A stretch of 47,826 nucleotides of DNA, taken from NCBI GenBank assembly GCA_023142915.1, contig JAGLIO010000063.1, positions 1-47,826 of the forward strand. The letters run 5' to 3'. The notes beneath the pieces were generated by a model. The model was not told where the DNA came from, did no database searches, and saw nothing but the letters and a program-made list of their open reading frames with translations. The DNA is from Candidatus Parcubacteria bacterium (GTDB lineage Bacteria > Patescibacteriota > Patescibacteriia > Patescibacteriales > UBA12075). Below are positions 3,859 through 28,448 of this stretch, one piece after another. The translations under genes and the position numbers were made by a program. Every line of letters starts with the position of its first letter. Positions within the stretch are counted from its first letter, which is position 1.

Positions 3859-4296
3859 TTACGCCGCCATAACATGCTCTTGAAACTTTGTTTTTAAAAC
3901 CTTTAATTCTCCTTTTACTTTTTCAACTTCTTTATTAACGGCAATAATATCTTCATTTTCAGTATTAATTGATCTATCAACTTTTTGTTCTAATTTATCA
4001 ATTTTTTTAGAAAGAGTTACGATATCATGTTTAATTGTGGTAATTTCGCCTTTCATTCCGGAAATCTCGCCTTTAATTTCAAAAATATCACTTTTTATTT
4101 CAGCAATCTCGCCTTTAATTTCAAAAATATCACTTTTTATTTCAGCAATCTCACTTTTTATTTCAGCAAATTTTTCATCCTGCGCCTCAAAGCCTTTTTG
4201 AACGGAAATAGCTAAATTATCAACTGTTTTGATAAAATATTCAGTGCTACTGTCCACTATTTTTTTAATTTGTTTTAAATCATTATTGTCTAACAT
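3859..4296 (-). CDS. Small heptad-repeat coiled-coil protein, paralogue A
   Basis: EIKS(E/D)I(A/F) heptads; N- and C-termini nearly the same as 6467..6823. Confidence 0.85.
   Translation of the reverse strand: MLDNNDLKQIKKIVDSSTEYFIKTVDNLAISVQKGFEAQDEKFAEIKSEIAEIKSDIFEIKGEIAEIKSDIFEIKGEISGMKGEITTIKHDIVTLSKKIDKLEQKVDRSINTENEDIIAVNKEVEKVKGELKVLKTKFQEHVMAA
4063..4152. repeat. 42-bp tandem repeat (two copies plus a partial) encoding paired heptads
   Basis: AATCTCGCCTTTAATTTCAAAAATATCACTTTTTATTTCAGC starts at 4063 and 4105; partial copy at 4147. Confidence 0.9.
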
Positions 4297-5004: not shown

Positions 5005-5032
5005 GTAGAGACGCGCCGTGGCGCGTCTCTAC
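5005..5032. repeat. GTAG-type REP-like palindrome, copy 1 (intergenic)
   Basis: GTAGAGACGCGCC-GT-GGCGCGTCTCTAC, stem extended by AAAC/GTTT. Confidence 0.92.
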
Positions 5033-6466: not shown

Positions 6467-6823
6467 TTACGCCGGCATAACATGCTCTTGAATTCTTGTT
6501 TCTACAATTTTTAATCTCTCTTTTACTTTTTCAACTTCTTGATTAACAGCAATAATATCCTCGTTCTCGGTATTAATTAATCTATCAACTTTTTGCTCTA
6601 ATTTATCAAGCCTCTCAGAAAGCTCCGCGACTTCACATCTAATAGTAGCGATTATTTCATCAAATCTTTTATCTATATATTTATCCTGTTCATCAAAACG
6701 TTTATCAACTTGTTCAAAATGTTTATCAACTTGTTTAAAACCTTTATTAATAATAATAGCAAAATCATCAAATTTGCTATCCATTAATTTTCCAATTTGT
6801 TTTAAATCATTATTGTCTAACAT
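6467..6823 (-). CDS. Small coiled-coil protein, paralogue B
   Basis: MLDNNDLKQI start and LEQKVDRxINTENEDIIAVN...QEHVMxA end shared with 3859..4296; middle is VDKRF-type repeats. Confidence 0.85.
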   Translation of the reverse strand: MLDNNDLKQIGKLMDSKFDDFAIIINKGFKQVDKHFEQVDKRFDEQDKYIDKRFDEIIATIRCEVAELSERLDKLEQKVDRLINTENEDIIAVNQEVEKVKERLKIVETRIQEHVMPA

Positions 6824-6869: not shown

Positions 6870-8201
6870 TTATTTTTTGCGTATAGCCAAAACTAAAACA
6901 ATCAAAATAACAAAGACGCCAATTAATAAAAATAATTCTCTTGGATTAAATCCTGATTTAATGAATTCCATGCTTAAAACTTTTATTTTTTGCACTAAAA
7001 TACTTGCTTCTGACTCAACTGTATTATGATTGGAAGCATAAATTTTGGCAAAATTTGTATAATTTCCGCTTTCAATATTATTTTCTATATCAATCATATA
7101 TGAAACACTCTTAAATTCACCAACATTAATATCGCCGATATTCCAATTTTTATTTTCTTCATTTGTGGCGTTATAGACAAAACCTTTTGCCAATATATTT
7201 GTTAAAATTACGTCAAAAGCCGGTAAATTACCGCTATTGCTTATAATAATTTCACATGCAATTCCTGTTTGTCCGGGATTAACTATTTCTTCTTTAATGA
7301 TATTTTCCACTTCTAATTTCGGCTCTCCTTCCTCTCCCAATACTATTGTTTCATCTTTGTTTTTTGTGGTTGTAAATGATAATTCTTTTCCGTATTTTTC
7401 AGGAGAAGCCTTTGAAAGCGGGCGGAAATAGTAAGTTGTTGCCGGCTCAAGATCACTTATAATTACCGAATGCGGAATCGTCTTATTCAAATCTTCCGCG
7501 ATAGAGTAAGCATAACCATAATTTGGCGCGCTTGAATTACTAATGTTTAGATGCGATATTATGTCATAGATTACTCTGGAAGTAGCTGGATTATTCGTGA
7601 GCCAAGATATAGTAGCGCTGGCATTATTAACGGTTACTACTTCATTGGAAATTATTAAATTATTATAATAATATCCTCCGCTAGAGCTCCCACCTTCGTC
7701 AATTTCACCGCTAATTGATTCATTTGTTCCGTCGCCGACAACAATATCAAAACCGGCTATTTTTCCCTGATAACTATTATTAGCTGATTCGTTAAAACTT
7801 ACGGCAAAATTATATGTGATAGCTGTGAATCCTGCTAAATCAGACAAATAAACGCCATCTAAAGCAAAAAAATTATTCAAGCTGTCAGAGTAAAGCTCAT
7901 CCCCTTCTTCTGTAATCGTTAAAATTAATTGTTCTCCTAGTCCGTTATCATATATATTTATTGCTCTGGCAGCGATAGGAATGTTATTTTCTGTTTTATT
8001 AGTAACATTTATCCAGCGAGCCTCACTGTTTCCCGGTAAAAAATTAGCCTTGTCAAACAATGGCGTACTTGTACCGGTTTTAAATTCAATATCTAAAATA
8101 TCAGTTGACTGCGCGCTAACCGTTGAAACACACGCAACAAAACCGGCAATAACAAAAATTACGCTAAAAATAAAAATAAATTTTAATATTTTGATTGGCA
8201 T
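6870..8201 (-). CDS. Membrane-anchored protein: TasA-like domain + FN3-like + DUF11-like + C-terminal TM
   Basis: NFLPGNSEARWINVTN and FNESANNSYQGKIAGFDI (TasA/camelysin-type motifs); ATISWLTN..ATSRVIYD; VLGEEG; hydrophobic tail ending IRKK. Confidence 0.75.
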   Translation of the reverse strand: MPIKILKFIFIFSVIFVIAGFVACVSTVSAQSTDILDIEFKTGTSTPLFDKANFLPGNSEARWINVTNKTENNIPIAARAINIYDNGLGEQLILTITEEGDELYSDSLNNFFALDGVYLSDLAGFTAITYNFAVSFNESANNSYQGKIAGFDIVVGDGTNESISGEIDEGGSSSGGYYYNNLIISNEVVTVNNASATISWLTNNPATSRVIYDIISHLNISNSSAPNYGYAYSIAEDLNKTIPHSVIISDLEPATTYYFRPLSKASPEKYGKELSFTTTKNKDETIVLGEEGEPKLEVENIIKEEIVNPGQTGIACEIIISNSGNLPAFDVILTNILAKGFVYNATNEENKNWNIGDINVGEFKSVSYMIDIENNIESGNYTNFAKIYASNHNTVESEASILVQKIKVLSMEFIKSGFNPRELFLLIGVFVILIVLVLAIRKK

Positions 8202-8217
8202 TTTTTTAATTTTATTA

Positions 8218-10248
8218 TTATTCGTCTTTGTTTTCGCTGTTGTTCACTGATTTTTCAATTATGTCATCTGTAATTTTTTCATTTGGGGGCTCTATGTTGT
8301 CGTCGCACGGTGGTAGAGACGCGCCGCGGCGCGTCTCTACGGTTGCGGTTGTTTCATCATCAACGATTATTTCATTATCTGTTGTTTCTTCATCGTCAGA
8401 CACAGAATTGGATGTAAAATCAAAATCAGATGGTGTGTCAGGCGCTGGCTCAGGCGTGACAATATCTATTGTGGTGTCTGTTGGATTTGGGTCGGGATTG
8501 GATGTGGGATTAGAGGCTGTATCAGGATTAGACGTGGAATCAGACGCTGGATTAGACGCTGGATTAGACGCTGGGTCAGACGCATTGCAATGCGTCTCTA
8601 CGGTTTCCTCGTATTCATCCAAATCCGCGTTTTCGTCTAATTCAATATTTTCTTCATTTAAATCTTCGTCTGCTATTTCGGCTTCTTCCGGATCTTCGCC
8701 GACAGACGCGCCGCGGCGCGTCTCTACGGTATTCTCACCAACCAATTCAACTGACAAATCTAATAATTCACCGGAAGCGTTGTTGTTTTTGTCTGCCTCA
8801 TTGTATAATCCGAGCTTTTTTAACATCTCTAATTCTTTTTCTGTTAATAATCCATAATCAATCGGCGGACAATAATCCTTATCTGACTCATCGCTATTTT
8901 GTACCATGAAATTTTCAGGACCGACAGCGACAACTTTTATTCTGGCATTGCCTGAGGGAACATAATATGTAAAATCTTCCAAAAATAACGGCAGACGAAA
9001 AAAATAATAACCAGTGTTTGTTGTTGTGGCAATAAAGCACCAGGTTCTCCCGCTATTATTTGAATAATACAAGCTAATAGTTAATTCACTGTCAGCGCTT
9101 TCGTTTGTACTGCTTGCGCTCCAATAAATTTCCTCAGTATGTCCGATATACCAAACCTCGCCGCCATTCGGACTCAAAACTTCAACTGTAGGCAAAGACA
9201 AATCTTTCCAATCAGAAACCGCGTCCGTATCATATCCGCTTGGAACGCGCCCCAGCATATTACCTTCGGATGTGGTTGCCACGGCAGGATTCCAAATATT
9301 ACTATTATAATTATCCCAATTTTCATTTGGCTTACCCCAATTCATCTGATCAATAATATTTCCATAATTATCTTTTAAAATAAGCATATCAGCATCATTA
9401 GCCATTTCAAACTGACCGCCCAAAGCATTAATTGTTTGGATGTTATCGGGAATTTCCCAATATTTCCAAGTGCTTAAATCATGTGAAATTAAAATATAAG
9501 CGCCAGCTTCAATCGTAGTGCTTGCGTTTATTTTCGCGCACGTGTTATGATTGCATATTTCCCATTTTTTTATGCTAATATCTTTATCAGTCGGATTAAA
9601 AAGCTCTATCCATTCATTTTTATCTTCCCTGCCGTGCGCGTCATCAACATCATAATAAACTTTATTAATCACTAAATAATCGGCAATATTCTCCCATATT
9701 CCGCTCGTAACAATATTGGAAATTCTTTCCAAATCTGAAAATCCCTTTTTGCCTGTTTGTTCTCCGTCAAAAATAAAATCAAATTCGCAAACCTTACTCC
9801 AATAACCGTAATCATTACTATTTAAAACTACTGTGAATTCTAAAATATCAAGCGTGCTTGTTGCCAAATAAAGATTATTTAAACTAAAATTAGCAAGAGA
9901 GCTTGTTGATAATAAAACCCCGTTTTTTATAACCTCCAAATCCAAAACTTGGCACAAGCCATCGTTACCATTCACAAAATCAATTCCAATATCATAACGC
10001 AAATCCATATCGCTATCATTAATAACTCTGATTTCACGATACGCGTTTATGTCGGGAACAAGTTCAGGTAAAAAATCATTATCCGATTCCAAAGAAAAAT
10101 CCAAAGAAGAAGTAAAAAAAGAGCTTATTTTTGTTGTTTCACTGTCGTTAAAAAAAGCCTTAGCCTGAATTACAGCCCAAAATCCCAGACAATTAAGTCC
10201 GGCTATCAATATTATTGCAATAAATTTTGATAGGGTTTTTTTATGCAT
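8218..10248 (-). CDS. SipW-type signal/TasA-like domain + lamin-tail domain + Ig-like domain + acidic low-complexity tail (likely start ATG 10248; track gives 10275)
   Basis: AKAFFNDSET..SSFFTSSLDF; YLVINKVYYD...EWIELFNPT; PTVEVLSPNGGEVW; D/E/S/N/P-rich C-terminus. Confidence 0.8.
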   Translation of the reverse strand: MHKKTLSKFIAIILIAGLNCLGFWAVIQAKAFFNDSETTKISSFFTSSLDFSLESDNDFLPELVPDINAYREIRVINDSDMDLRYDIGIDFVNGNDGLCQVLDLEVIKNGVLLSTSSLANFSLNNLYLATSTLDILEFTVVLNSNDYGYWSKVCEFDFIFDGEQTGKKGFSDLERISNIVTSGIWENIADYLVINKVYYDVDDAHGREDKNEWIELFNPTDKDISIKKWEICNHNTCAKINASTTIEAGAYILISHDLSTWKYWEIPDNIQTINALGGQFEMANDADMLILKDNYGNIIDQMNWGKPNENWDNYNSNIWNPAVATTSEGNMLGRVPSGYDTDAVSDWKDLSLPTVEVLSPNGGEVWYIGHTEEIYWSASSTNESADSELTISLYYSNNSGRTWCFIATTTNTGYYFFRLPLFLEDFTYYVPSGNARIKVVAVGPENFMVQNSDESDKDYCPPIDYGLLTEKELEMLKKLGLYNEADKNNNASGELLDLSVELVGENTVETRRGASVGEDPEEAEIADEDLNEENIELDENADLDEYEETVETHCNASDPASNPASNPASDSTSNPDTASNPTSNPDPNPTDTTIDIVTPEPAPDTPSDFDFTSNSVSDDEETTDNEIIVDDETTATVETRRGASLPPCDDNIEPPNEKITDDIIEKSVNNSENKDE
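8313..8340. repeat. REP-like palindrome, copy 2 (in frame, VETRRGASL)
   Basis: GTAGAGACGCGCCGCGGCGCGTCTCTAC. Confidence 0.92.
8490..8583. repeat. Imperfect 12-bp tandem repeat encoding ASNP/ASDP/TSNP
   Basis: AGACGCTGGATT units; protein ASDPASNPASNPASDSTSNPDTASNPTSNPDP. Confidence 0.8.
8578..8601. repeat. REP-like palindrome, copy 3, variant core (in frame, VETHCNAS)
   Basis: AGACGCATTGCAATGCGTCTCTAC: same arms, different self-complementary centre. Confidence 0.85.
8704..8727. repeat. REP-like palindrome, copy 4 (in frame, VETRRGASV)
   Basis: AGACGCGCCGCGGCGCGTCTCTAC. Confidence 0.9.
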
Positions 10249-10261
10249 AGCGCATATGTAT

Positions 10262-10540
10262 TTAATTAATCTCAACCTCCATCACCAAACTCTCAATCGG
10301 CAGACTCCCAACATTTTCAAATTCCAACTCCCCTTCCACTTCGTCGCCAGGCAGCCAATTTTCAGCTGTCCAAACCGCGTTAGCAGGTTCGTTTATGACT
10401 AAATCCAATGTCCCTGCCTCAAAAACATTATTTTCCGACACTTCCGTATCTTGAAAAAAAGCGGTTGTGTAGCTGATTGAAGCGATTACAGCGCTTACGG
10501 CGATTATTACTGTTAAACTTTTTATGATTTTGATGTTCAT
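10262..10540 (-). CDS. 92-aa SipW-dependent protein, N-terminal half of a TasA/camelysin-like domain only
   Basis: YTTAFFQDTEVSENNVFEAGTLDL...NWLPGDEVEGELEFENVGSLPI, then stops. Confidence 0.85.
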   Translation of the reverse strand: MNIKIIKSLTVIIAVSAVIASISYTTAFFQDTEVSENNVFEAGTLDLVINEPANAVWTAENWLPGDEVEGELEFENVGSLPIESLVMEVEIN

Positions 10541-10561
10541 ATATTTTTTATCTTTAAAAAA

Positions 10562-13500
10562 TTATTTAGCTAAAAATTTAAAATTAACATTAATACTTTT
10601 ACCTTGATATTCATTTCCGGCTGATTCTAAAAATTTGAATTTCATTTTTAGTTTTTTCTTTTGGGCTGGATTTAATACGCCGTCTGTTGTGTAATCTTCC
10701 AAATCCACTGATGATTCTTTTAGTTCGGAAAGAAGTAATGGGGCTATGCCATCGCCGGTGTCTGCTGTGACTGCGGTTAGAATGTCTTCTTCGCCGTATT
10801 CTAGTTTTGTGATGGCAATTTGGGTTTCTAGATTTGCGCCCATGTCAAGGGTGTTGCCTGTTGTGAATGTTTCTTCTGGTTCACCGTCGCCATCTTCATC
10901 TATCTCCACTGTAACACCTTCCCCACCTTGTGAGAGGGCTTGCCAGTCTATTGAGTATTGGTGTACTTCGTCGGGGGTTGTTGGAATATGGGCGGCATTG
11001 AAGGTGGTTTCTTCGCCGTTTATAACTGAAGTAACAGTGAGTCCATATATTCCATTGCTTGTTCCGACTATTTTTGGTGTATAGCCTTCTTCTGGAAATA
11101 ATATCAGCGCCCTCTCTGTCTCTTCGTCATACATAGAATTTGGAATATTTTCAACTATTTGACCATTAACTATACCGGTCACGTTCCCATCTACATCTTG
11201 TATTTGCATGTCGACAGGACTATGAACTTCATATTCAACATAATTAGTTAACACTTTTTCTAATTCTTTGACTAAATTATCCTGTGAGTTTGGATAAAAA
11301 TTCTTTAACCAACTTCCAACTCCAGACATATACGCCTTTTCGCCATTATATCTCCAAACAGCGCTAGCAACATCTCTTGCCTTATTAGCTGTTTCCGAAA
11401 AACCACTATCATAAGGTGCATTATTATCTAAGCCGTATTTAGTATTAAGATGATATAACATGTCTTTAAGATTTGCTTCTACACCCTGTCTAGTATTGGT
11501 ATATATTTTACAAGAGCATCCATCCACAATCTCTTCTTTACATGTTCCATAAGTCATACCGTCCGATTTGCTTGGATACTTATACTTATAAACAGATTTC
11601 CATCTATTATCTTCATATTCTTTCATGTTGCAATAGTAGCCATCTCTATAAAGAGTGTGATAAAGCTCGCCTGGCTGCCGAAAACAATCTTTTATAAAAT
11701 CTTCTGGCAACAAATAATCTGTAAGACCTACCTTGTCATATGGCATATACCCTGTTTCTATATCTTTTCCACAATAGCATCCGACTCCGCCACCTTTGCT
11801 TATGCTACTATTATCAGTTAATTGTCCTAATCCGCGACCACAATCAAAGGATATATTTGTGTTATCTCCTTCTGTCCATTCTTTTTTTACCATTGCCCTT
11901 AGCAACTCAAATGGAAATTTATGTTTATTCAAAGAACTACTGGAAATTTCTCGCATTATTTCATTTTCTTCTTCATCTTTGTAACGATAATCTATCATTT
12001 TGTTTTCCCAATCTATTTGTTGATTATCATTAAAACTCAAACCATCAGATTTCATCCAGCCGATTAAATCATCTGTTTTATCTTCCACTTCCCACCAGAT
12101 AGAGCCATCTGGTGATATTTCTAAATTGTTATGAGTATTTGTTGCTTTTAATATCCAACCATCTGGCACGACTTTTAGTCTTTCGTTAATGTCGTTTTCT
12201 CCTTTAAATTTTTCCGAATAAATTATTTGTGAACCAACCACTTTTACAAATTTTCCATTTGACGGCATATTGATTATAGTAACGTTTTCCTCTCTATTAT
12301 CTTTGCTATCATATGAACTTTGATTATCTGCATCTCCATCCGTATGACATCCAGGGTCGTCTTCATCTGTAAATCCATCCCCATCATTATCAACTTCATC
12401 ATTACACTGAGTCTTTGCAACAGTTGTGCAAGCGCTTATATCAATCAAACACACATCACTACAGCTCAAACTCCCACCATCAAAATCAAAAGACTCACAA
12501 TTTTGCCCGTCAAAATTAGTTCCATCACACTCTTCTGTGTCAGTTATTTCGCCATCACCGCAATACGAACCAATAATTGTAATAAGCTGACATTCATTTG
12601 AGCAGTATTCACAAGTTCCGTCATATCCTGCATGACAAATATATCCATTCTCGCCATTCCAATCACACTCCTCACCTTCATCTACAATATCATCTCCGCA
12701 AAAAGCATCAGTGCATTTGTAATTAAAACATCTATCATTCTGGCAATCACTATCTATTTCACAAGTATCGCCAATTGGACACTTATTGCAAATACTGCCT
12801 CCGCAATCATCGTCTGTCTCGTCTTGGTTTTTAATACCATCAGAACAAGTCTCTTCCACGGAACAACCTTCATCAACAACACCATCACAATCATTATCAA
12901 GATTATCATTACATATTTCAGACACCGGATTTACAGACCCGATACAATTACCCCAATTTCCTCCGATACATGTCTGTGTGCCATACGAACATAAACCAAC
13001 ATCTGTTTGACCGCATGATCTAACGGCGCCGTTTAAACAATCGCAATTTTCGTCAACAATATTATTACAATTGTTGTCAAATCCGTCACAATATTCAAAA
13101 GCGCCCAGGTGTATTGCCGAATCAGTATCATCGCAATCCCGTCCTAAAATAGTAAAATAAAAATAATTCGGATTGGTAGCTCCATAACATAAAGATACCG
13201 AGTTTTCAGGCAAAGAATATCCATCGCCGTCATAATCATAATAAAAATCACCAAGCCGCCATATACTGCTGTTGTTGTCATTACAATCAACATCTGAACA
13301 TACTCCATCGTTATCTGCATCAACACAAATAGGACCGCATATATTACTTGGGATATTTACAGTAACTGTATTTGAATTAACGTTACCACTCGGAAGTAAG
13401 GCTCTAATGTAGTAGCTATAACTATTTCCAGCGATTAAATTTAGGTTATTATAAAAAAAAGAATCTAAGGATGTATTTGTGTAAGGATAACCGTTGCGAT

Positions 13501-14221
13501 AAACCTCGTACTTTGTGGCGCCGGGATAATCATTCCAATCAAGCATAATTGCTGGAGCGTCGTAATATTCATGATCACAAACAGGAGGTTGATGAGATAA
13601 AAGAAGTTCTACTGGCTCATCTACTACTGTGACTTTGATACTCACGTCATCAAGTTTAAATGACGTAAACACAGTATCATCTAAAGTACTATGAAACTTA
13701 ATTTGAACACTGTTGCCATCTTTTCCGCTTAGATCAATTTGTTTTGTAGAAAGCTCATAGCAACTTCCACCGGCGCACGAATGTTTGTTTAAATTACTAA
13801 GGTTTCTGATTGGATATGATTCCCCTGTGGTTAAATTTTCTAACGTTACATCTAGTTCATCGTAAGGTTGCGTAGTCGCTTCGTCAGAGTAAATATTAAA
13901 ATAAAATGAAATCGTCGCTAACTCTGCCCCAGAAGGCACAGTCATTACTTGAGACAGAAGGTCTTGTTTTCCGTTTATTTCACCCAATACGGCATAATAT
14001 GATCCCCAGTGCGGGAATAAGCCTGACGTTATAACTGCGCCAGACAAATCCCAGTCACCATTATCACCACTTTCAAATCCACCATTTAAAACAATGTTTT
14101 GATCTGCAGCAAATGCTGTTTGTGTTATTAGCAGTGCTGAACAAGAAATAATAAATGAAAAACAAACCAAAAAAACACTAATTTTTAAACTTTTAAAGTT
14201 CCTCCTTTTTATTAAATTCAT
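10562..14221 (-). CDS. 1219-aa secreted multidomain protein: CBM-like, FN3, MopE-like/Cys-rich repeats, SH3-like, lytic transglycosylase-like, SPVD domain, C-terminal half TasA-like domain
   Basis: VLNGGFESG; DCDDTDSAIHLGAFEYCDGFDNNC; CGDGEITDTEECDG; IWWEVED..IGWMKS; PFELLRAMVKKE..GRGLGQ..AVWRYNG; HSPVDMQIQDVDG; ESAGNEYQGKSINVNFKF. Confidence 0.8.
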   Translation of the reverse strand: MNLIKRRNFKSLKISVFLVCFSFIISCSALLITQTAFAADQNIVLNGGFESGDNGDWDLSGAVITSGLFPHWGSYYAVLGEINGKQDLLSQVMTVPSGAELATISFYFNIYSDEATTQPYDELDVTLENLTTGESYPIRNLSNLNKHSCAGGSCYELSTKQIDLSGKDGNSVQIKFHSTLDDTVFTSFKLDDVSIKVTVVDEPVELLLSHQPPVCDHEYYDAPAIMLDWNDYPGATKYEVYRNGYPYTNTSLDSFFYNNLNLIAGNSYSYYIRALLPSGNVNSNTVTVNIPSNICGPICVDADNDGVCSDVDCNDNNSSIWRLGDFYYDYDGDGYSLPENSVSLCYGATNPNYFYFTILGRDCDDTDSAIHLGAFEYCDGFDNNCNNIVDENCDCLNGAVRSCGQTDVGLCSYGTQTCIGGNWGNCIGSVNPVSEICNDNLDNDCDGVVDEGCSVEETCSDGIKNQDETDDDCGGSICNKCPIGDTCEIDSDCQNDRCFNYKCTDAFCGDDIVDEGEECDWNGENGYICHAGYDGTCEYCSNECQLITIIGSYCGDGEITDTEECDGTNFDGQNCESFDFDGGSLSCSDVCLIDISACTTVAKTQCNDEVDNDGDGFTDEDDPGCHTDGDADNQSSYDSKDNREENVTIINMPSNGKFVKVVGSQIIYSEKFKGENDINERLKVVPDGWILKATNTHNNLEISPDGSIWWEVEDKTDDLIGWMKSDGLSFNDNQQIDWENKMIDYRYKDEEENEIMREISSSSLNKHKFPFELLRAMVKKEWTEGDNTNISFDCGRGLGQLTDNSSISKGGGVGCYCGKDIETGYMPYDKVGLTDYLLPEDFIKDCFRQPGELYHTLYRDGYYCNMKEYEDNRWKSVYKYKYPSKSDGMTYGTCKEEIVDGCSCKIYTNTRQGVEANLKDMLYHLNTKYGLDNNAPYDSGFSETANKARDVASAVWRYNGEKAYMSGVGSWLKNFYPNSQDNLVKELEKVLTNYVEYEVHSPVDMQIQDVDGNVTGIVNGQIVENIPNSMYDEETERALILFPEEGYTPKIVGTSNGIYGLTVTSVINGEETTFNAAHIPTTPDEVHQYSIDWQALSQGGEGVTVEIDEDGDGEPEETFTTGNTLDMGANLETQIAITKLEYGEEDILTAVTADTGDGIAPLLLSELKESSVDLEDYTTDGVLNPAQKKKLKMKFKFLESAGNEYQGKSINVNFKFLAK

Positions 14222-14306
14222 AAATTGTTGATTTTAAAAATAATTATTTAAATTAATATAAAATATTTTATGTTTGTTTTGATTTTATTGATTTACCGCG
14301 CGCGGT

Positions 14307-14334
14307 GTAGAGACGCGCCGCGGCGCGTCTCTAC
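14307..14334. repeat. REP-like palindrome, copy 5 (overlaps the sipW stop)
   Basis: GTAGAGACGCGCCGCGGCGCGTCTCTAC preceded by ACCGCGCGCGGT. Confidence 0.92.
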
Positions 14335-14843
14335 GGTGGTAATTTCCTAATCCTCCGAACCTCCACCCAAATCTTCTTCCCCTCATCCAAAATAATAATC
14401 AAAGCCGGGATGCCAATAATCAAAATAAAACCCCAAGGCTTTTTTGCAGTGGCAACGGCATATCCCACAAACGGAACGGAAAATAAAACTTTTCCAATAA
14501 TTTCATGCTCTTTTATTTTTTTCGCATCTTCGGAATTATTTGCGTCTCCTTTTGTAGTATATGTTTTTACGCCGTTATCATTTATTATTTCTTGTATTCT
14601 GTGCGTGGTTGGCGTTTTCCCTTTGCTTTCCGCTCCAAAAGTAATAACATCGCCTGCTTTATATTCCTTAACCGGTTTAATCACAACAATACTTCCGGTT
14701 TTAATTGCCGGCTGCATTGATCCTGATTGCACGATTTTTACTTTAAAATTACCTGTAATGGGAAACATTGTGGCAATCAATAAAATCGCGATAATGCCGA
14801 TGCAAACAAAAAATATATTGCTGGATATTTTAAATAACTTCAT
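14331..14843 (-). CDS. sipW: Signal peptidase I, SipW/ER (S26B) type
   Basis: N-terminal TM, VQSGSMQPAIKTG (Ser), PTTHRI (His), TKGDANN..D, C-terminal TM. Confidence 0.93.
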   Translation of the reverse strand: MKLFKISSNIFFVCIGIIAILLIATMFPITGNFKVKIVQSGSMQPAIKTGSIVVIKPVKEYKAGDVITFGAESKGKTPTTHRIQEIINDNGVKTYTTKGDANNSEDAKKIKEHEIIGKVLFSVPFVGYAVATAKKPWGFILIIGIPALIIILDEGKKIWVEVRRIRKLPP

Positions 14844-14861: not shown

Positions 14862-17105
14862 TTAATTTATAACAAAATTAATATCACCAGACATAACCGA
14901 TGCCCAATTTCCTTGATGAAAACTCTCTTCAGTCAAAACCATTTCTAAATCATAAGTTCCTGCTGTAAGACCCAGTCCATTGCATCCGCCTCTGCCAGGT
15001 TCCGGCTGTCCGCTTGATCTATATTCAGGGCAAAATAATACACTTGGATTAAATGAGTCAAGATTTTGAAGATAATCATTGCTTGTGCTTGAGCTGCATT
15101 CTTCGTAAAGAGTACCACAGTACAAAACATGATAACTTGAATCACTTGATAAAATAATATCATCAGCGTAAATATTTCCAGAGGCATCAGCGGTAAAATA
15201 ATCAAACACTAGATAGCCGACTATGCATTCCTTATTAGGATCAATATCTGATAATAATTTATTTGCCTCATACTGCGCGTCAGTTCTGTTTCTTGCGTTA
15301 GCATCTCCTACGCAAGTAGCGCCGCTAACACATGTCCATCTGCCTTTATAACCTACATATTCATTGGCTAAATCATCAGTGCCGCCGTTACAAACCGGCT
15401 TGCCTTCCAATTTCACTTGATAAGTGGCATAAGGTTTTAATCCTGAAGCAACCATGCTGCCTGTTAATTTTCCGCTTACAGGACCTGGATTAACATAAGT
15501 AAAAGCCGCGCTAGCATTGTAATAATCATGATAATAGCCATACTGAGTGCTTTCTGCCAAGTCGTTTAATTGGATTGTTTGAAAGCCAGTACAAACTCCG
15601 GCACAATCTAAATCAGTACAATCAACAAATCCATCACAATCATCGTCTAAACCGTTATCGCAAACCTCAGGAGCTTCCGGATTTACTAAAGGATTATTGT
15701 CGTTGCAATCCCTGCCTAATGTTGTTTCTGTGTATCCATCTGGAATTTCATCTCCACAACAAACTGCCATCATTCCATCATCCCTGCGATTTGCTCCATC
15801 CCCATAGTATCCGTCATCATCGCCGTCGTAATAATAAATGCCTACGCGCCAAGAATTAGGATTATTTATATCATTACAATCGCTATGTCCTAAAAATCCA
15901 TCTTCACCTTCACATCCGCTTGCCTCTGCGTAATATCCATCCCCGTCATTGTCCGTGCAATTCGGATTATCGCTTCCATTTTCATCTTCATAATCGCAGT
16001 TTAATTCTTCATTCGGCTTGTCTCCCTGTTTGTAATTTATTAGTCCTGGCCAGTTGTCAAAAATCCAATCTGAATTGTCTGGGCTCCAACTAACTAACTT
16101 ATGATTTAAAATATCATATTTAATACAAGGTAATAGCCAAATTTTAGCGCCGTTTGGATAATTTTCATCGTCAATATTCGGCAAATCAGTATTAATATTT
16201 TTATTATCAATTAAAGAAAGCTTTCCATCGCTATCCGGTGTTCCTTGATCAATTAAAAATCCTGTTTGTCCTGTCGTTCCGCTTCCTTCGCTGCTCCAAG
16301 GATCTGCATAATAAATTAAGCAATATTCCGTACTCGGATTAAGCCCAACGCCTAAAAAATCATAATTAAAAGTCGGCGCCATATAATCATATTTTAAAAT
16401 ACCCATTGTTTCGTCTGCTGTTGCAGTCCAAGTGTTATTGTTATATTTATTATCCATAAAAGATATCTGTTGTAACGGCTCTGGCGCGCTTACTTGACGC
16501 GCCTCAATTTCAATCACAAACGTCATTTTATCGCTTTGCGCCCAATTTTCAGTATCTTCACGCATATAATATCTTTGTATAACATTGACTGATTCGTCTG
16601 GTTGTAAAATTCCATCGCCATTGTTTTGTTCAAACGGCTGGTCTAGTTTTACCAAGCCCATATAATTGTCTTTAACATGGTTCATTGTAATTCCGGCTTC
16701 CTTAGAAATAGCCAACTTACCGTCAACATACATTTCATAAATAATCGCGGAATCAATATCGTTTTTCGGATTACCGCTATTATTTTCATCATACCATTCC
16801 TGCTCAGGTTCAATTATTCCATTGTCATCATACTCAACACATTTAATGATTTTCCATAATTTTAATGGGTTTAATCCTTCGTTTGTGATTTCAAATTCAA
16901 TTTCAAAATCTTTGCCAGGCTTAATGTCATCCCAAACAAAATTTCGCGACCATGGATTTTCACCGTCTATGGAAATATGAATAGTTCCCGCGGTAAATGT
17001 ATTGCCGGTTGAAATTTCCGTGTCGCTAAAAAATGATATTGTTCCTCCTGCTACCAACGCCGACATTGCGCCAATAACCAATATGCTTAATAAAATTTTT
17101 CGCAT
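14862..17105 (-). CDS. SipW-dependent TasA-like protein with extra domains and MopE-like Cys/Asp repeats
   Basis: GGTISFFSDTEISTGNTFTAGTIHI; IKPG; ENWAQSDKMTF; DCNDNNPLVNPEAPEVCDNGLDDDCDG. Confidence 0.88.
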   Translation of the reverse strand: MRKILLSILVIGAMSALVAGGTISFFSDTEISTGNTFTAGTIHISIDGENPWSRNFVWDDIKPGKDFEIEFEITNEGLNPLKLWKIIKCVEYDDNGIIEPEQEWYDENNSGNPKNDIDSAIIYEMYVDGKLAISKEAGITMNHVKDNYMGLVKLDQPFEQNNGDGILQPDESVNVIQRYYMREDTENWAQSDKMTFVIEIEARQVSAPEPLQQISFMDNKYNNNTWTATADETMGILKYDYMAPTFNYDFLGVGLNPSTEYCLIYYADPWSSEGSGTTGQTGFLIDQGTPDSDGKLSLIDNKNINTDLPNIDDENYPNGAKIWLLPCIKYDILNHKLVSWSPDNSDWIFDNWPGLINYKQGDKPNEELNCDYEDENGSDNPNCTDNDGDGYYAEASGCEGEDGFLGHSDCNDINNPNSWRVGIYYYDGDDDGYYGDGANRRDDGMMAVCCGDEIPDGYTETTLGRDCNDNNPLVNPEAPEVCDNGLDDDCDGFVDCTDLDCAGVCTGFQTIQLNDLAESTQYGYYHDYYNASAAFTYVNPGPVSGKLTGSMVASGLKPYATYQVKLEGKPVCNGGTDDLANEYVGYKGRWTCVSGATCVGDANARNRTDAQYEANKLLSDIDPNKECIVGYLVFDYFTADASGNIYADDIILSSDSSYHVLYCGTLYEECSSSTSNDYLQNLDSFNPSVLFCPEYRSSGQPEPGRGGCNGLGLTAGTYDLEMVLTEESFHQGNWASVMSGDINFVIN

Positions 17106-17781: not shown

Positions 17782-17809
17782 GTAGAGACGCGCCGCGGCG
17801 CGTCTCTAC
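17782..17809. repeat. REP-like palindrome, copy 6 (intergenic)
   Basis: GTAGAGACGCGCCGCGGCGCGTCTCTAC, with ACCGCGCGCGG before it and CGAAT mini-repeats after it. Confidence 0.92.
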
Positions 17810-17891: not shown

Positions 17892-19127
17892 TTAGTTATA
17901 ATCATAATTTACCAATGTTCCGTCATCAACTAAATACTGGCTTGGATTCCAACCGCTCATTTTTTTATTAACCTCATCATAATCAGCAGCCAATACTAAC
18001 CATACCTTAGCTCCAACTCCATAATTAGCATCAGGAATTTCAGGCAAATCTATTCCCAAAACAGTACTGCCAGTAACGTCATTAATTTCACCACTACTAT
18101 CTGCAGTATAATTAGCAATCAAGGCTCCTGGATGATTTCCTGGATATGGATCTCCATAATAAATTAAACTGTAATCCGCATTATCAGTAAGACCTGTGGC
18201 AGTAAAACTATAATCAAATGTTGCGCCTTCAACCTTATAAGTCAAAGTACCTTTTGCACCATCGGAAAGGGCTGTCCATACATCACCAGAAGTATCCTTT
18301 TGAGTTAATTTTGCTATAGATGTGTTGTCTTCACTTACACCCGGCGCCGGAGCCGTCAACTGTCTAGCTTCCAATTGAACATCAAAATTCATAACATCGC
18401 CTTGCGCCCAATTTGTAATCATTGCTTCTCCCGAATCATCCCATGCCATCAAATGATAACTTTGGCTAACAACTAATTTTTCGCCTGGCGCTAATTTACC
18501 ATTCAATTTAACCCAAGTGTCAACAACATTGTCAATTCTAACCTGATCGTTTTCGTCAATAAGAACTGTCCATAATCTATTACCGTCTACATCCGTTTTT
18601 TCTAAATCAGGCTTTTTGTTTTCTTCAGGATTGGTAGTGTTATTTATTATAAACGGACAAGAATCTATTTCTGCTCGATTTACTGGAATTTTACAAATCG
18701 CCATATCATAAACCATAAATGCTGAAAGATTATCTCTTTCTGTATACTCATTATTATCACCATCCACACAAGTTCCATCTTCAAATATTCCTCCGCCTTC
18801 TGTGTATTCCGGTTCAGAAGAAGCTCCGCAATAGCTTGTGTCGCCAGGACCATTTTTAACATTTGTTAATTTTTTCCAAATATTGGCTGGATTTTCTCCA
18901 ACATTTTCAATAACAAAAGTCATATAACTAACTTGACATGGCTTGTCTAAAAAATTTGACCAACTGCTAGCCCACGGATTCTCCTCATCAACAGAAATAT
19001 CAATAGTCCCCGCGGTAAATGTATTTCCTACGCTTGTTTCAGTGTCGCTAAAAAAAGACGTAGTGGCTCCGACCGCAAGCGCTCCGACAGCGGCGATCAT
19101 GGCCAAACTCATAATAATTTTTTTCAT
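17892..19127 (-). CDS. SipW-dependent TasA-like protein, candidate major fibre subunit
   Basis: GATTSFFSDTETSVGNTFTAGTIDI; TNWAQGDVMNF; second domain YSLIYYGDP..GAKVWLV shared with 14862..17105. Confidence 0.88.
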   Translation of the reverse strand: MKKIIMSLAMIAAVGALAVGATTSFFSDTETSVGNTFTAGTIDISVDEENPWASSWSNFLDKPCQVSYMTFVIENVGENPANIWKKLTNVKNGPGDTSYCGASSEPEYTEGGGIFEDGTCVDGDNNEYTERDNLSAFMVYDMAICKIPVNRAEIDSCPFIINNTTNPEENKKPDLEKTDVDGNRLWTVLIDENDQVRIDNVVDTWVKLNGKLAPGEKLVVSQSYHLMAWDDSGEAMITNWAQGDVMNFDVQLEARQLTAPAPGVSEDNTSIAKLTQKDTSGDVWTALSDGAKGTLTYKVEGATFDYSFTATGLTDNADYSLIYYGDPYPGNHPGALIANYTADSSGEINDVTGSTVLGIDLPEIPDANYGVGAKVWLVLAADYDEVNKKMSGWNPSQYLVDDGTLVNYDYN

Positions 19128-19611: not shown

Positions 19612-22506
19612 TTACACAGTTTGCCTGCTTCTGATAAATATAGCAGAGCTGGCTAAAGTCAAAAGAGAAACAAATAAAATAATAAATTCGTTAAACTTAA
19701 ACCCTGTTTCAGCCAGCACTATCACTTTTTCCACTTCAAGGCTTGCCGAGGCAGTAACGCTTGCGTGATTATCAGCGCTGGCGCTTGCGTTATTCGCGTA
19801 AACTTTTGTCGCCGCGTTTGCGTTTACTCCTGCCATGTATTTTACCGCGGCTTCTTCACCTGGATTAATATCTCCTAAATCCCAATCTTTAATATTGCCG
19901 TCAAAATCCTGAAAACTTATTCCTTGAGGCAAAATATCATTTAACTTAACATTAAAAGCTGTCAAGTTGCCTTCATTTTTTACAATAATAACAAATTCTA
20001 TATCTGTCTCGCCCGGATTTGCTTTTTCTTTGCTTACTGTTTTTGTAATGACTAAAACAGGCGCTCCTTCTTCGCCAAGGACTGCCGTTTCTTCGTTAAT
20101 ATCATTGTCAAAATCAACAGTGCTAAAAGTTATTTCCTGCCCATAAACCTCAGGTGATCCATGTGATATTGACCGGAAATAATAAGTTGTTTTTGGCGCT
20201 AAACCTGAAATGGTTACGGAATGGGCGGTTACTTTAACGGGATCTTCTATTGTTGAATAAGCATAGCCGTAATTCGGCGGATTCCCAACAGTAGAATGCG
20301 GAACCGTGTCATAAACCACGCGGCTGGTGGAAAAATGAGTGGTAAGCCATGTAATGGTAACTGAATTTGGCTTTGCGCTGTTTACCTCTACTTGAGTATT
20401 TTCTATACTAAGGGCTGAATTAATAAAACCGCCTCCTCCTCCCGCGCTTTGCAATTCGCAGTTTGAATCGCAAGTATATCCGCTTGACACGCCATCACTT
20501 CCATCACATTCTTCATTTCCGTTTTTAATTCCATCACCGCAATATGATCCGGATAATTCCACTATTTGACATATATCAGAACAATAATTACAACTGCTTC
20601 CGTAAGAAGGATCACACACAATGCCATTGTTTTGCCCGTCATCACATGTTTCGTTATTATCTAAAATTTCATTTCCGCAATACGCGTAATAATTAACAAA
20701 ATTATTATTTTCGCTATCGCTTCCATTAATAACAATATCAGAGCTTGACGCCATTAATTGCTCCCATCCGCTTTTTAAAGTTTCTGTTAATATATATTCG
20801 CCGTCTTCTAAATCATTAAACTCAAAATAGCCGTTTACGTTTGTGGTGGTTGTGGCGGTTGTTGATACCGTAACATCAAAAAGATTAATTACCCAATCTT
20901 TTCCAGGATTCTGCAAATATTCATTAGTTGTTGTCGCTCCGTCCTGATCTTCAAATTTATAGCCGGAGATAATACTTGTTGAGGGAATATCTTGCTCATT
21001 AAAAAATGTACATTCAACATTATCACCCTGACCAAGAGTAATATTAACGCTATTGCCTGTTGTGTTGTAATTTCCATTAATACACCCAACACAACTTATT
21101 TCAGTTAAATTCCAACCAGAAACTACATTTTCCGTTACAGAATAACTTCCAACAGGAATATCAAAAAAACTTTTAGAGCTAGTTGAATTAGATCCATTAT
21201 CAATTAATTCAAAATCAATTCCTAAATTACTGCTAAATACAAATTCCTGAGAACTGCTTGAATTGCTGTTCTTTATGATTGTGATTGAGCCTGTTTCAGG
21301 CTCATCAGGTATTTGATAATTACCAAAATGCCTTTCATTGGCATTTACGCCCTCTTCTAATAACTCTACTGTCCAAAAACTTTCTTCTGTTGGATAAGTC
21401 TGTGTCCAGCCGTTTTGCTCAATTTCGCTAACAGTATAAATTCCGGACATTAAACCAGCAAAAGTATAGCAACCATAATTTTCATCATTAACATCGCTTA
21501 CTGTTTCTTGTTCTGATATAAGATTACCATCTTGCGATAAATTAATAACCCATCCCCCGATTTTTTCTTCACCGATTATATCACTATCCTCATCAACATC
21601 ATTATATTTACATCCGGAAATTGAACCGTAATTACAAATCTGCGATCCTATATTATCATAAATATTTTCCAGCCCATCGCCTGTTGAGGCATAGTAGTAG
21701 CCAACAGCATTATTTTCCCTTTTTGCGCCGGTAACATCTGCAATATATTCTAACAACGCTTCGGCACCAGCATCAATATTATCACCTAAGCCGATTGTAA
21801 AAATTTTATGCCCCAACAAAGCGGCTTGATCAGCCATGTTTTTGGCATACTGAACAGCATTTTCATCGGGTTTATTAGCATTGCCATCAGCTAATAATAT
21901 AATAGCTTTCATTGCTTGCGGATTGGCATTAGTGCTTGATGCAAGTTCAATATTAGCAGAAGCAATAGCAGCCCCGATATTAGCTCCTCCACCTATTGTT
22001 AAATCGCCAATTTCAGTATGAGTGCTAGTTAAAAATTTATCCCGCGTTGCATTATCCGCAAACGAAACTAGCGCTGATTGATCATTTGTTCCTAATTTAC
22101 CTAAAAAATTATTGGCTGCTTGTTTCGCATCAGTAATTTTATTTGGAATAGTGGCAGTATAGACGGGAGCCCTACAGCTGTTCGGAAACTCATCATCATC
22201 TTTAATAGCTAGACACTGATCTTTAGTAAGTCCGCTTTTTTCACGAGAAACGCATGCACTATTATAAACGCTCTCCCATTCACAAAAACCTCCATCTTCC
22301 ATACTCCCAGACCGATCCATAACCAAAACAACATCCACATCAGCGACGCACATATTTTGACTTGGCTCGTCTGCCAGCGCGTCGTCTATTGGCAAAACAA
22401 CAAAAAACACGCCTAAAAATGACATGTTTAAAATAACCGCGCATAAACTGAAAATACTAATTAACCTATTACTTCTTGCCCTCCCAGCTCGAAAAAATAA
22501 CCGCAT
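19612..22506 (-). CDS. vWA adhesin with three SdrD-B/CnaB-like domains, Cys-rich repeats, FN3-like, DUF11-like and LAETG-TM anchor
   Basis: DVVLVMDRSGSM (MIDAS); GSISGCKYND, GSITIIK, IISGYKFED; CGDGIKNGNEECDG; VLAETGF + hydrophobic stretch + RSR. Confidence 0.88.
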   Translation of the reverse strand: MRLFFRAGRARSNRLISIFSLCAVILNMSFLGVFFVVLPIDDALADEPSQNMCVADVDVVLVMDRSGSMEDGGFCEWESVYNSACVSREKSGLTKDQCLAIKDDDEFPNSCRAPVYTATIPNKITDAKQAANNFLGKLGTNDQSALVSFADNATRDKFLTSTHTEIGDLTIGGGANIGAAIASANIELASSTNANPQAMKAIILLADGNANKPDENAVQYAKNMADQAALLGHKIFTIGLGDNIDAGAEALLEYIADVTGAKRENNAVGYYYASTGDGLENIYDNIGSQICNYGSISGCKYNDVDEDSDIIGEEKIGGWVINLSQDGNLISEQETVSDVNDENYGCYTFAGLMSGIYTVSEIEQNGWTQTYPTEESFWTVELLEEGVNANERHFGNYQIPDEPETGSITIIKNSNSSSSQEFVFSSNLGIDFELIDNGSNSTSSKSFFDIPVGSYSVTENVVSGWNLTEISCVGCINGNYNTTGNSVNITLGQGDNVECTFFNEQDIPSTSIISGYKFEDQDGATTTNEYLQNPGKDWVINLFDVTVSTTATTTTNVNGYFEFNDLEDGEYILTETLKSGWEQLMASSSDIVINGSDSENNNFVNYYAYCGNEILDNNETCDDGQNNGIVCDPSYGSSCNYCSDICQIVELSGSYCGDGIKNGNEECDGSDGVSSGYTCDSNCELQSAGGGGGFINSALSIENTQVEVNSAKPNSVTITWLTTHFSTSRVVYDTVPHSTVGNPPNYGYAYSTIEDPVKVTAHSVTISGLAPKTTYYFRSISHGSPEVYGQEITFSTVDFDNDINEETAVLGEEGAPVLVITKTVSKEKANPGETDIEFVIIVKNEGNLTAFNVKLNDILPQGISFQDFDGNIKDWDLGDINPGEEAAVKYMAGVNANAATKVYANNASASADNHASVTASASLEVEKVIVLAETGFKFNEFIILFVSLLTLASSAIFIRSRQTV

Positions 22507-27361: not shown

Positions 27362-28282
27362 CTACGAATTTTCTCTTTTTAACACCATTATAAAACCGGT
27401 GATAACGCTAAGAGATATTAAGAGTACCATAAGGTCTTTTACGCTGAATCCTGTTTCCGCCAATACTTTAACTGCTCTTACTTCAAGATTTGCTTCAGCG
27501 CTTACGGTTTCATGGTTTGACGCGCTTGCTTCCGCTTTGTTGATATAGACTATTGGCTTTGCGTCCGCGCTAACATCAACCAAATAAGAAATTTCTTTAA
27601 TTCCGCTTTGTTCAATATCGCCTAAACTCCATGTTTTAACCATGCCCTCTTGATCGCTAAAATTTAATCCAGCCGGCAATGTATCTGTAAGCAAAGTTTC
27701 AAAAGCTGTTAAGTTGCCTGTGTTGGCCACCGCGATCGTATATTCAATATCAGTATCTCCGGGATTTGCAAATTCTTCTGCTATTGATTTTGTTATTTTT
27801 AATATTGGCTCGCCTTCCTCGCCCAAAACAACCGGATCGCAACAATCCGCCATATTAAATGCTAATTCACCGCCAAGCACACTTGGAGAAGCGCTGGAAA
27901 TAGGCTTAAAGTAATAAGCTGTATTTTTAATTAAGCCTTTAATAACCACAGAATGATGAGTAACTTTATTAGTATTTTTTATTGTAGAAAATTCATAGCC
28001 GTAATTCGGAGCCGCGCCGATTGAAATCTGATTTTTTGTTCCATAAACTACGCGGCTGGTCGCGTTTTTATTAGTGCGCCAAGTAATAATAGCGGAGGCT
28101 TCCGACAAGCAGGATAATTGCTGATCGTGAATTTTCAAAGGCGGAGTGCCGCCATAACCGAAAGCAGTTTTTGTATCCAAAAAATTACCGCTGCCAAAAT
28201 TGCCTGAAAAACAAACTATTGCGGTAACGGCTAAAATACTGAAAATAATATTAGTATTTATTTTTTTTATAGTTTTTAACAT
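27362..28282 (-). CDS. FN3-like + DUF11-like + LAETG-TM surface protein (likely start ATG 28282; track gives 28324)
   Basis: AGGGG just before the ATG; AIITWRTN..ATSRVVYG; VLGEEG; VLAETGF + TM + KR. Confidence 0.85.
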   Translation of the reverse strand: MLKTIKKINTNIIFSILAVTAIVCFSGNFGSGNFLDTKTAFGYGGTPPLKIHDQQLSCLSEASAIITWRTNKNATSRVVYGTKNQISIGAAPNYGYEFSTIKNTNKVTHHSVVIKGLIKNTAYYFKPISSASPSVLGGELAFNMADCCDPVVLGEEGEPILKITKSIAEEFANPGDTDIEYTIAVANTGNLTAFETLLTDTLPAGLNFSDQEGMVKTWSLGDIEQSGIKEISYLVDVSADAKPIVYINKAEASASNHETVSAEANLEVRAVKVLAETGFSVKDLMVLLISLSVITGFIMVLKRENS

Positions 28283-28448
28283 ACCCCTAAAATTTCTCCA
28301 ATATAATAAAGCTAACAACAGCAAAAAAAAGACCTTAATTTAAGCCCTCCTTAATTATAAATTGTATTGCTTGTGTCTTAAAACAAATTATAGCACAATT
28401 TTACATAGTGTCAATGTCAATTAATTTTCATACCCCGAGTTTTAAAAT

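Follow-up and report, generated by a model that had tools for sequence, protein, structure and literature searches.

Can a cell wall-cutting enzyme be carried on a fibre subunit of an ultra-small bacterium? This question is raised by a gene in a 47,826-nucleotide (nt) stretch of DNA from a Candidatus Parcubacteria bacterium (contig JAGLIO010000063.1 of assembly GCA_023142915.1), which is called the window here. To our knowledge, how ultra-small, host-dependent bacteria attach to their partners and draw on them is largely unknown. The gene encodes P0001, a secreted multidomain protein of 1219 amino acids (aa). A preliminary description of the stretch 11340–12260, which corresponds to about residues 654–961 of P0001 on the minus strand, had proposed an SH3-like module and a lytic transglycosylase-like module displayed as the cargo of a split pilin. 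We assign a probability of about 0.6 to the reading that P0001 is a cell wall-cutting SH3b-SLT enzyme riding as cargo on a split TasA-type fibre subunit, likely with a foreign target. The features on which this reading draws, all on the minus strand, are as follows.

10562..14221, minus strand: gene of the secreted multidomain protein P0001 (1219 aa), a single open reading frame (ORF)
14108..14221, minus strand: putative signal peptide, residues 1–38 of P0001, read from the translation (basic start, hydrophobic core, AFA then AD)
12302..13339, minus strand: Cys-rich repeat region, residues about 295–640, from Pfam, NCBIfam and the Cys positions
12017..12259, minus strand: SH3b-like beta-barrel domain, residues 655–735 (KVVPDGWILK...IWWEVED..TD..GW)
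11252..11980, minus strand: predicted GH23/SLT-like lysozyme-fold domain, residues about 748–990, from VIA-align and from Pfam SLT in relatives
11879..11881, minus strand: codon of Glu781, the putative catalytic acid
11504..11815, minus strand: Cys-rich insert, residues 803–906, between motif II (GLGQLT) and YTNT
10841..11242, minus strand: beta-sandwich domain without a Pfam family, residues 994–1127
10565..10834, minus strand: TasA/camelysin-like C-terminal half (C-half), residues 1130–1219, from the Peptidase_M73 profile and metagenome copies
10262..10540, minus strand: next gene (92 aa), SipW-type signal peptide and TasA-like N-terminal half (N-half), from Peptidase_M73 and TIGR04088
14331..14843, minus strand: SipW-type signal peptidase I, directly upstream of P0001 (TIGR02228, 115.1 bits against a cut-off of 51.85)

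The SH3b barrel and the lysozyme-like domain

Residues 655–995 of P0001 were modelled with AlphaFold2 from an alignment of 38 of 87 relatives. The model had a mean predicted local distance difference test score (pLDDT) of 80.5 and a predicted template modelling score (pTM) of 0.82, with the Cys-rich insert alone being poor. In a VIA-align run against 48,161 representative chains, the top ranks were occupied by lytic transglycosylases covering model residues of about 94–327, with the following Z values, root-mean-square deviations (rmsd) and numbers of aligned residues.

5aa1_A, MltF: Z 13.0, rmsd 2.4, 123 aligned
4c5f_A, MltC: Z 10.8, rmsd 2.5, 124 aligned
5o2n_A, Slt: Z 10.6, rmsd 2.9, 128 aligned
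4hjy_A, MltE: Z 9.6, rmsd 2.8, 122 aligned
4g9s_A, g-type lysozyme: Z 9.5, rmsd 2.8, 121 aligned
1qsa_A, Slt70: Z 8.5, rmsd 3.2, 129 aligned
8rhe_A, MltD: Z 8.3, rmsd 2.6, 119 aligned

Taken with the sequence motifs described below, the model indicates that the domain very probably has a lysozyme-like fold and belongs to the GH23/SLT family. The preliminary description had named the absence of such a fold as the observation that would count against it; in the model of residues 655–995 the fold is present, and the proposed lytic transglycosylase-like module is borne out by the matches to MltF, MltC, Slt and MltE (Z 13.0–9.6). The lysozyme fold surfaced with VIA-align and not with Foldseek.

The SH3-like module that had been proposed ahead of this domain likewise appears as a barrel in the model, with strands at pLDDT 76–97, and model residues 1–77 matched the SH3b domains of wall hydrolases at Z 7.9–6.0. 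The leading matches were to 4krt_B (Z 7.9, rmsd 2.3, 66 aligned) and 6bim_A (Z 7.2, rmsd 2.0, 63 aligned), followed by AtlE, InlB and further SH3 rows at Z 6–7. These Z values are middling, and the assignment therefore rests on the consistency across rows and on the detection of Pfam SH3_3 on the homologous stretch of the relatives P0023 (32.3 bits) and P0035 (28.2 bits).

To collect relatives, residues 640–1010 of P0001 were run with HMMER against 1.84 billion representatives. Counting the query itself, 88 proteins matched at E≤1e-3, of which 16 reached ≤1e-10 and 2 reached ≤1e-30. P0046 and P0065, which match a short repeat only, were dropped to leave 86 family proteins including the query. 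A word-indexed search with residues 640–1000 found three relatives. Nearly all relatives carry the barrel (KVVPDGWVLK...WWEVEDVTDG..GW), the helical domain and a beta-rich domain (SP.EL.I.D..G.VTG.VNG...IP.S.Y...H.Y.IDW...G..GV...D.DGDG) in a row.

All strings quoted in the preliminary description were located between residues 708 and 960 of P0001: IWWEVED at 708–714, LIGWMKSDGL at 719–728, FPFELLRAMVKKE at 769–781, ISFDCGRGLGQLT at 790–802, YHLNTKY at 923–929 and AVWRYNG at 954–960 (Y958, N959 and G960). FPFELLRAMVKKE ends at Glu781, which is the last residue of the model helix 771–781 and which the family profile aligns, weakly (E about 0.7), with Glu64 of MltE/EmtA; the title of entry 4hjy names an E64Q mutant. 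Glu781 is thus a putative catalytic acid at the GH23 motif I position. It is kept in all 86 family proteins (88/88 alignment rows). In a local iterative alignment, counting the rows that cover each site, G797 and Q800 are each present in 87/87 rows, Y907 and D920 each in 86/86 and N909 in 83/86, and the motif III residues Y958 and N959 occur in 78/87 and 74/87 rows, P0001 reading WRYNG at 956–960. The family consensus, FP.ELILAIIAQESG..FDNE..S.D.G.GIMQIT ... YYTNT.QGI.ANIKDG..L ... AVWRYNG, matches at the level of sequence the textbook SLT pattern. The proposed order of a Glu, a GLMQ-like and an AYN-like motif is therefore present in P0001 and conserved in its relatives. One assignment within it was corrected: the AYN-like motif is AVWRYNG, and N..D..YHLNTKY is the conserved helix that follows YTNT.

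The Cys-rich insert that had been seen to interrupt these motifs spans 104 residues between T802 and Y907 and contains 7 Cys, with C794 lying before it. The same site holds between 10 and 133 residues across the family and about 20 in canonical relatives. On the far side of the lysozyme-like domain, the beta-sandwich of residues 994–1127 was modelled at pLDDT 96–98 and accompanies the SLT domain in most relatives. It has no Pfam match, and its comparison with known folds gave no clear family (best VIA-align Z 6.2 for 2qz7_B, rmsd 4.0, 112 aligned).

Routine annotation is blind to this region. The only Pfam matches over the whole of P0001 were Cu-binding_MopE repeats in the Cys-rich repeat region (43.7 bits, 2 stretches), where the NCBIfam acidic double-disulfide repeat scored 30.2 bits, under its cut-off of 41; the SH3b-SLT part was missed by both databases, and the preliminary description had therefore seen what annotation misses. 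A sequence search of the PDB with residues 640–1010 met nothing but designed propellers and trefoils, which matched through low-scoring repeats, and was set aside as irrelevant. The same search with the relative P0004 was dominated by the TolB-like propeller of that protein, with nothing on the SLT part. Look-alikes in the Atlas included SH3_3, CwlT-lysozyme, muramidase plus SH3 and SLT plus SH3 clusters at 0.88–0.91, which we treat as leads only.

P0001 resembles Family-1 GH23 enzymes (PF01464: Slt70, MltC, MltE/EmtA and MltF) in the predicted lysozyme-like fold (Z 13.0–8.5) and in the succession of a helix-end Glu, G-x-x-Q, a Y-x-N helix and Y-N-G. It differs from them in reading EW and GLGQ where they read ES and GLMQ, in the added 104-residue, 7-Cys insert, in the familyless beta-sandwich that follows and in having no Pfam match. 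An SH3b domain beside a wall-cleaving domain is also found in the Psm endolysin (4krt), the NlpC/P60 proteins 6bim and 3pvq, LytB and the AtlE repeats. However, those proteins are compact autolysins or endolysins, whereas in P0001 the pair is embedded in a chain of 1219 aa, with about 350 residues of disulfide repeats ahead of it, and is coupled to one half of a predicted fibre subunit.

The proposed split TasA-type carrier

The last 39 residues of P0001 matched positions 150–190 of the 196-position Peptidase_M73 profile (PF12389) at 18.2 bits, under the cut-off of 22.5. The 92-aa protein encoded by the next gene matched positions 6–86 of the same profile at 47.3 bits, which passes the cut-off, and reached 19.6 bits against TIGR04088 (cut-off 19). 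The C-half on P0001 and the N-half gene thus cover complementary parts of Peptidase_M73. The 92-aa gene begins in the same frame after the TAA of P0001 and 21 nt; read-through of this stop codon was considered and rejected, since the 92-aa protein starts with a signal peptide of its own and the corresponding genes in two metagenome loci (L031 and L032) overlap in different frames.

When residues 1130–1219 were folded alone, they reached a pLDDT of only 35–50, against 96–98 for the preceding sandwich. By contrast, a complex model of residues 1120–1219 with the mature 92-aa protein scored 0.62 (0.61, 0.63 and 0.62 in separate runs) against 0.00 for the best of 3 controls, a mark that 51 of 78 solved complexes but just 2 of 108 mismatched pairs attained. 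The runs agreed in at least 97% of contacts, with a partner pLDDT of at least 63. Residues 28–44 of the 92-aa protein lay outside the named interface of the complex model. In TasA, the N-terminal strand 28–38 is the donor strand that links subunits (PMC9674648).

A metagenome scan with residues 655–1219 as the query found seven loci that match in the C-half only, at 60–81% identity (60–77% for five copies). Two metagenome C-halves scored 21.8 and 18.0 bits against Peptidase_M73. Conservation between the metagenome copies and P0001 starts sharply at LETQIAIT, at residue about 1130. An N-half homologue of 97 aa lies downstream of the C-half gene in 5 of the 7 loci (L029–L032 and L035), with a 4-nt overlap between the two genes in L031 and L032. 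The contigs of the remaining two loci stop short of where a downstream gene would lie. The cargo ahead of the C-half varies, being a 205-aa protein or a 725-aa Ig-like protein elsewhere and the 1219-aa protein here. Small multi-pass membrane proteins of about 100–130 aa were observed near the split pair (L029, 493–828; L033, 487–816; L031, 2678–3655; L032, 1093–2473), and in L029 one of them stands between the two TasA-like halves. A search for the C-half in 60 related genomes gave three weak matches (E 0.005–0.008), of which the one inspected (L026) was an unrelated protein.

These results support the view that the C-half of P0001 and the 92-aa N-half would fold together as one TasA-type subunit. 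That the module is the cargo of a split pilin, as had been proposed, is consistent with the complementary profile halves, the complex score and the recurrence of the pair, that is, with models and comparative genomics. We infer from them that the two halves pair in vivo and that the subunit is displayed on a fibre. A six-frame search of the genome recovered exactly four TasA-like pieces: the end of P0001 and the 92-, 747- and 411-aa ORFs, the last three matching the start of Peptidase_M73 at their N-termini (47.3, 39 and 28.2 bits, respectively).

The TasA/TapA/SipW fibres of Bacillus subtilis, which assemble by donor-strand exchange (PMC9674648), share with this locus a SipW gene near SipW-type signal peptides and the Peptidase_M73 fold, as well as a free N-terminal strand for donation, here taken from the complex model. 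In contrast to TasA, which is one chain, the fold is here split over two genes, the C-half preceding the N-half; the C-half chain bears a large cargo that can be exchanged, and the genome search turned up no full-length TasA gene. TasA homologues in Patescibacteria have been reported (PMC9245690), as has a different donor-strand pilus of bacteria of the candidate phyla radiation (CPR) (PMC13278184). Among the papers listed by a search on this subject, none links TasA-type fibres to a transglycosylase. If it holds, a split TasA-like pair with swappable cargo would be a new way to load functions onto donor-strand fibres.

Distribution, activity and target

None of 60 related genomes (3 of the same genus and 57 further ones) contained a match to the SH3b-SLT part, nor did any of 400 other genomes of the phylum when residues 655–995 served as the query. 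A query of residues 655–1119 did match in 12 of the 60, and all of the matches listed fell within query positions 304–465, the beta-sandwich; they are orthologues of another gene of the source genome, on contig 21. The source genome comprises 1.32 Mb in 99 contigs and is 93% complete, and the related genomes measure 0.7–1.8 Mb. The SH3b-SLT-sandwich module is an accessory and probably acquired cargo in the source genome.

When 185,579 species genomes were scanned for the pattern of the family, two loci were found, both in metagenome-assembled genomes (MAGs) labelled uncultured Halobacteria archaeon. One of them encodes, in an open frame of 831 aa, the same cassette together with a Cys-rich insert and a membrane tail at the C-terminus. 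A search of 300 genomes of the archaeal phylum gave 14 others that match in the beta-sandwich part only. The beta-sandwich without an SLT domain was accordingly seen in 12/60 related genomes and 14/300 genomes of the archaeal phylum, in proteins of about 1000–1900 aa. We do not call the family archaeal because the membrane tail, taken as a marker of archaeal origin, occurs in just 10 of the 86 proteins; other C-termini look bacterial. Neither a sequence relative among 50,697 phage records nor a PHROG match was found for the window fragment.

Pfam was run on 47 of the 87 relatives (P0002–P0048), the 40 proteins P0049–P0088 lying outside the scan. Only five of the 47 passed SLT (P0004, 31.5 bits; P0037, 26.6; P0024, 26.1; P0023, 25.3; P0018, 22.2), and SH3_3 was listed in five, two of them above the cut-off (P0023 and P0035). 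PG_binding_1 and NosD/beta-helix were each found in 15 of the 47. This family of about 86 representative clusters, which combine SH3b, divergent SLT and beta-sandwich domains and are mostly missed by Pfam, would therefore be undercounted when the peptidoglycan hydrolases of uncultured bacteria and archaea are surveyed. The P0001 module is a divergent member of this largely unannotated family. In the relative P0003, the alignment reads as though a second PG_binding_1 domain lies inside the SLT-like domain, between the YTNT helix and WRYN, and Pfam counts 2 PG_binding_1 stretches in that protein.

In the reading that we prefer, residues 655–1127 would form a three-part cassette of an SH3b wall-binding barrel, a divergent GH23 domain with Glu781 as the general acid and the beta-sandwich. 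By analogy with their families, the SH3b domain would dock on peptidoglycan and the lysozyme-like domain would cut the bond between N-acetylmuramic acid (MurNAc) and N-acetylglucosamine (GlcNAc) to leave 1,6-anhydro-MurNAc ends, and the 104-residue Cys-rich insert at its hypervariable site may shape what is bound. The last 90 residues would act as the C-half of a TasA-type subunit that receives its N-half, with a free donor strand, from the next gene, the two chains making one subunit through which the enzyme could be inserted into an extracellular TasA-like assembly. The most likely role of such an assembly would be to grip another bacterium's wall and open it. Of the interpretation given in the preliminary description, the fold, the motif order and the split-subunit cargo stood on models and sequence comparison, and a peptidoglycan enzyme on a fibre was supported in part.

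Several observations weigh against this reading. The Foldseek search against the PDB had no match at E≤1e-3, the best rows all being SH3 domains at E 0.06–0.4, and P0001 gave no Pfam SLT or SH3 match, whole or as fragments, even at E≤10; Pfam SLT also had no match in a six-frame search of the genome. The Cys-rich insert was modelled by AlphaFold2 at a pLDDT of only 39–64. On the side of the carrier, no complete TasA-like gene came up in the six-frame search, the genome being 93% complete, and since both halves belong to a fold with solved TasA structures, the passing score of the complex model may reflect likeness to those structures. The genome has a peptidoglycan machinery of its own (a YceG/MltG gene and four matches to penicillin-binding protein (PBP) transpeptidases, with a YkuD gene in the window), which makes a self-directed role possible. 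Finally, the GH23/SLT motifs known as ES and G-L-M-Q have Ser/Thr after the Glu and Met in the second motif, where P0001 reads EW and GLGQ. These deviations had been pointed out in the preliminary description and proved rare or atypical among the relatives: directly behind the Glu, 49 proteins have S, 20 have T, four each have M or A, three each have I or D, and one each has W, G or E, so that Trp occurs in P0001 only (1/86 proteins), and in motif II a Gly stands where 68/87 rows have Met. The active site of this branch appears changed in sequence, and its activity may be altered or lost.

The changed motifs lead to a rival explanation in which P0001 is a pseudoenzyme that has kept the fold and the groove and lost turnover, acting with its SH3b domain as a glycan-strand lectin, a pure adhesin head on a fibre. 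Besides EW, GLGQ and the missing Pfam SLT match, it is favoured by the nearest branch (P0002, EG/GGQ; P0003 and P0005, EM/GSQ; P0006 and P0007, EM/GGQ), which has lost both the Ser/Thr and the Met, and by the adhesin-type domains (LTD, DUF11, VWA and SpaA) of adjoining genes. Yet because these nearest relatives also lack ES and the Met, the loss is a property of the branch and not a lesion, and P0001 keeps Glu781, Q800, Y907, N909, D920 and Y958-N959. The presence of the Glu in 86/86 proteins, the divergent branch included, is the pattern predicted by selection on catalysis and forms the main argument for activity. On these sequence grounds, we lean slightly towards retained catalysis in the SLT-like domain of P0001 and regard a pure adhesin as somewhat unlikely.

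If P0001 does cut a wall, that wall could be its producer's own. Secretion systems, flagella and pili employ dedicated transglycosylases as space-makers in this way, and P0001 might open the wall for the passage of the large surface proteins or fibres of its locus. The wall machinery of the genome and the position of the gene within a SipW/surface-protein locus agree with this, as does a match to EtgA, the transglycosylase of type III secretion (8urn_A, Z 7.8, rmsd 4.0, 118 aligned). A machine part should, however, travel with its machine, whereas the SH3b-SLT part was not found in the 3 same-genus genomes, the 57 further relatives or the 400 other genomes of the phylum, and in other loci the split carrier bears cargo that is not enzymatic. 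Space-makers are also typically small, in contrast to 1219 aa with about 350 residues of disulfide repeats. Further against a housekeeping role, PG_binding_1 and SH3b domains are present in the relatives from archaeal MAGs. Archaea of the group to which these Halobacteria MAGs belong are not known to have murein. We consider the space-maker explanation unlikely. Still less probable is a beta-1,4 amino-sugar polymer other than peptidoglycan as the substrate, such as chitin, chitosan-like glycans or the capsule of a partner. GH23 does include a chitinase (3w6b_A, Z 8.2, rmsd 3.4, 115 aligned), and altered active-site motifs with a large insert could mean a new substrate; against this, the best fold matches are peptidoglycan enzymes, and relatives pair the domain with PG_binding_1 (15/47) and SH3_3. 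Chance resemblance of the motifs or an assembly artefact, for which the absence of direct Pfam matches alone would speak, is refuted by the 88 relatives, the confident fold and the identical contigs of four DNA sequencing runs, and its probability is negligible. Per-run contigs span 10000–14335 with zero differences, and the junction between P0001 and the 92-aa gene is bridged in 4/4 runs, again with no differences. The four runs are from one study labelled cold seep metagenome, and 3 of them are possibly the source of this DNA. Among the sequencing runs listed as containing the stretch, there was no RNA run.

A wall-cutting cargo aimed at another cell, the reading preferred here, has parallels in two known systems. 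Archaea use modular peptidoglycan hydrolases against bacteria (reported in 2025; PMC12352652); like P0001, these combine a catalytic with a wall-binding domain, and the context of their target is the wall of another cell. That survey was defined by Pfam catalytic and binding domains, whereas most members of the P0001 family escape Pfam SLT, and the main text of the survey contains none of the terms 'SLT', 'lytic transglycosylase' and 'GH23'. In phage phiKZ, gp144 (3bkh_A, Z 8.0, rmsd 3.2, 130 aligned) is a GH23 domain on an extended structure that reaches another cell, as proposed for P0001; in difference to phage transglycosylases, the window fragment has no phage or PHROG sequence relative. 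More speculatively, and in our view doubtful as a whole, a two-gene TasA-type subunit with interchangeable C-half cargo, a design not described before, might bear a head shared with archaeal surface proteins and serve this ultra-small bacterium to seize or breach a partner cell. If so, P0001 would represent the first TasA-like fibre armed with an enzyme and a possible means of host entry for an episymbiont. For the question of how such bacteria attach to their partners, P0001 is a concrete, expressible candidate, with a predicted wall-binding and wall-cutting head on a putative fibre adaptor.

Neighbouring genes and repeats

Upstream of the signal peptidase gene, the window encodes two further proteins on the minus strand, of 747 aa (14862–17105) and 411 aa (17892–19127), in which a SipW-type signal peptide is combined with no more than the first 50–75 positions of the TasA profile. 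Unrelated domains follow their TasA-like starts, and from their sequences these two proteins could be TapA-like strand donors.

Three DUF11-type surface proteins (19612–22506, 27362–28324 and 6870–8201, minus strand) end in VLAETGF or a variant of it, a hydrophobic stretch and a basic tail, which, judged by eye, looks like a sortase-type sorting signal. P0001, unlike these three neighbours, has no sortase-type anchor. The surface-protein genes are flanked by small coiled-coil proteins of 118 aa (6467–6823) and 145 aa (3859–4296), also on the minus strand, with near-identical N-termini (MLDNNDLKQI...) and C-termini (...KLEQKVDR.INTENEDIIAVN.EVEKVK...).

A 22-nt GC-rich perfect palindrome, GAGACGCGCCGCGGCGCGTCTC, is present in 6 copies in the window, with 0 expected.

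5008–5029: palindrome copy
8316–8337: palindrome copy
8703–8724: palindrome copy
14310–14331: palindrome copy
17785–17806: palindrome copy
42568–42589: palindrome copy

Two of the copies lie inside a 685-aa ORF, where they code for ETRRGAS. At 14263–14400, the depth of metagenome contigs was 106–336, against 7–25 elsewhere, and contigs break at that site. The palindrome looks like a highly repeated small element.

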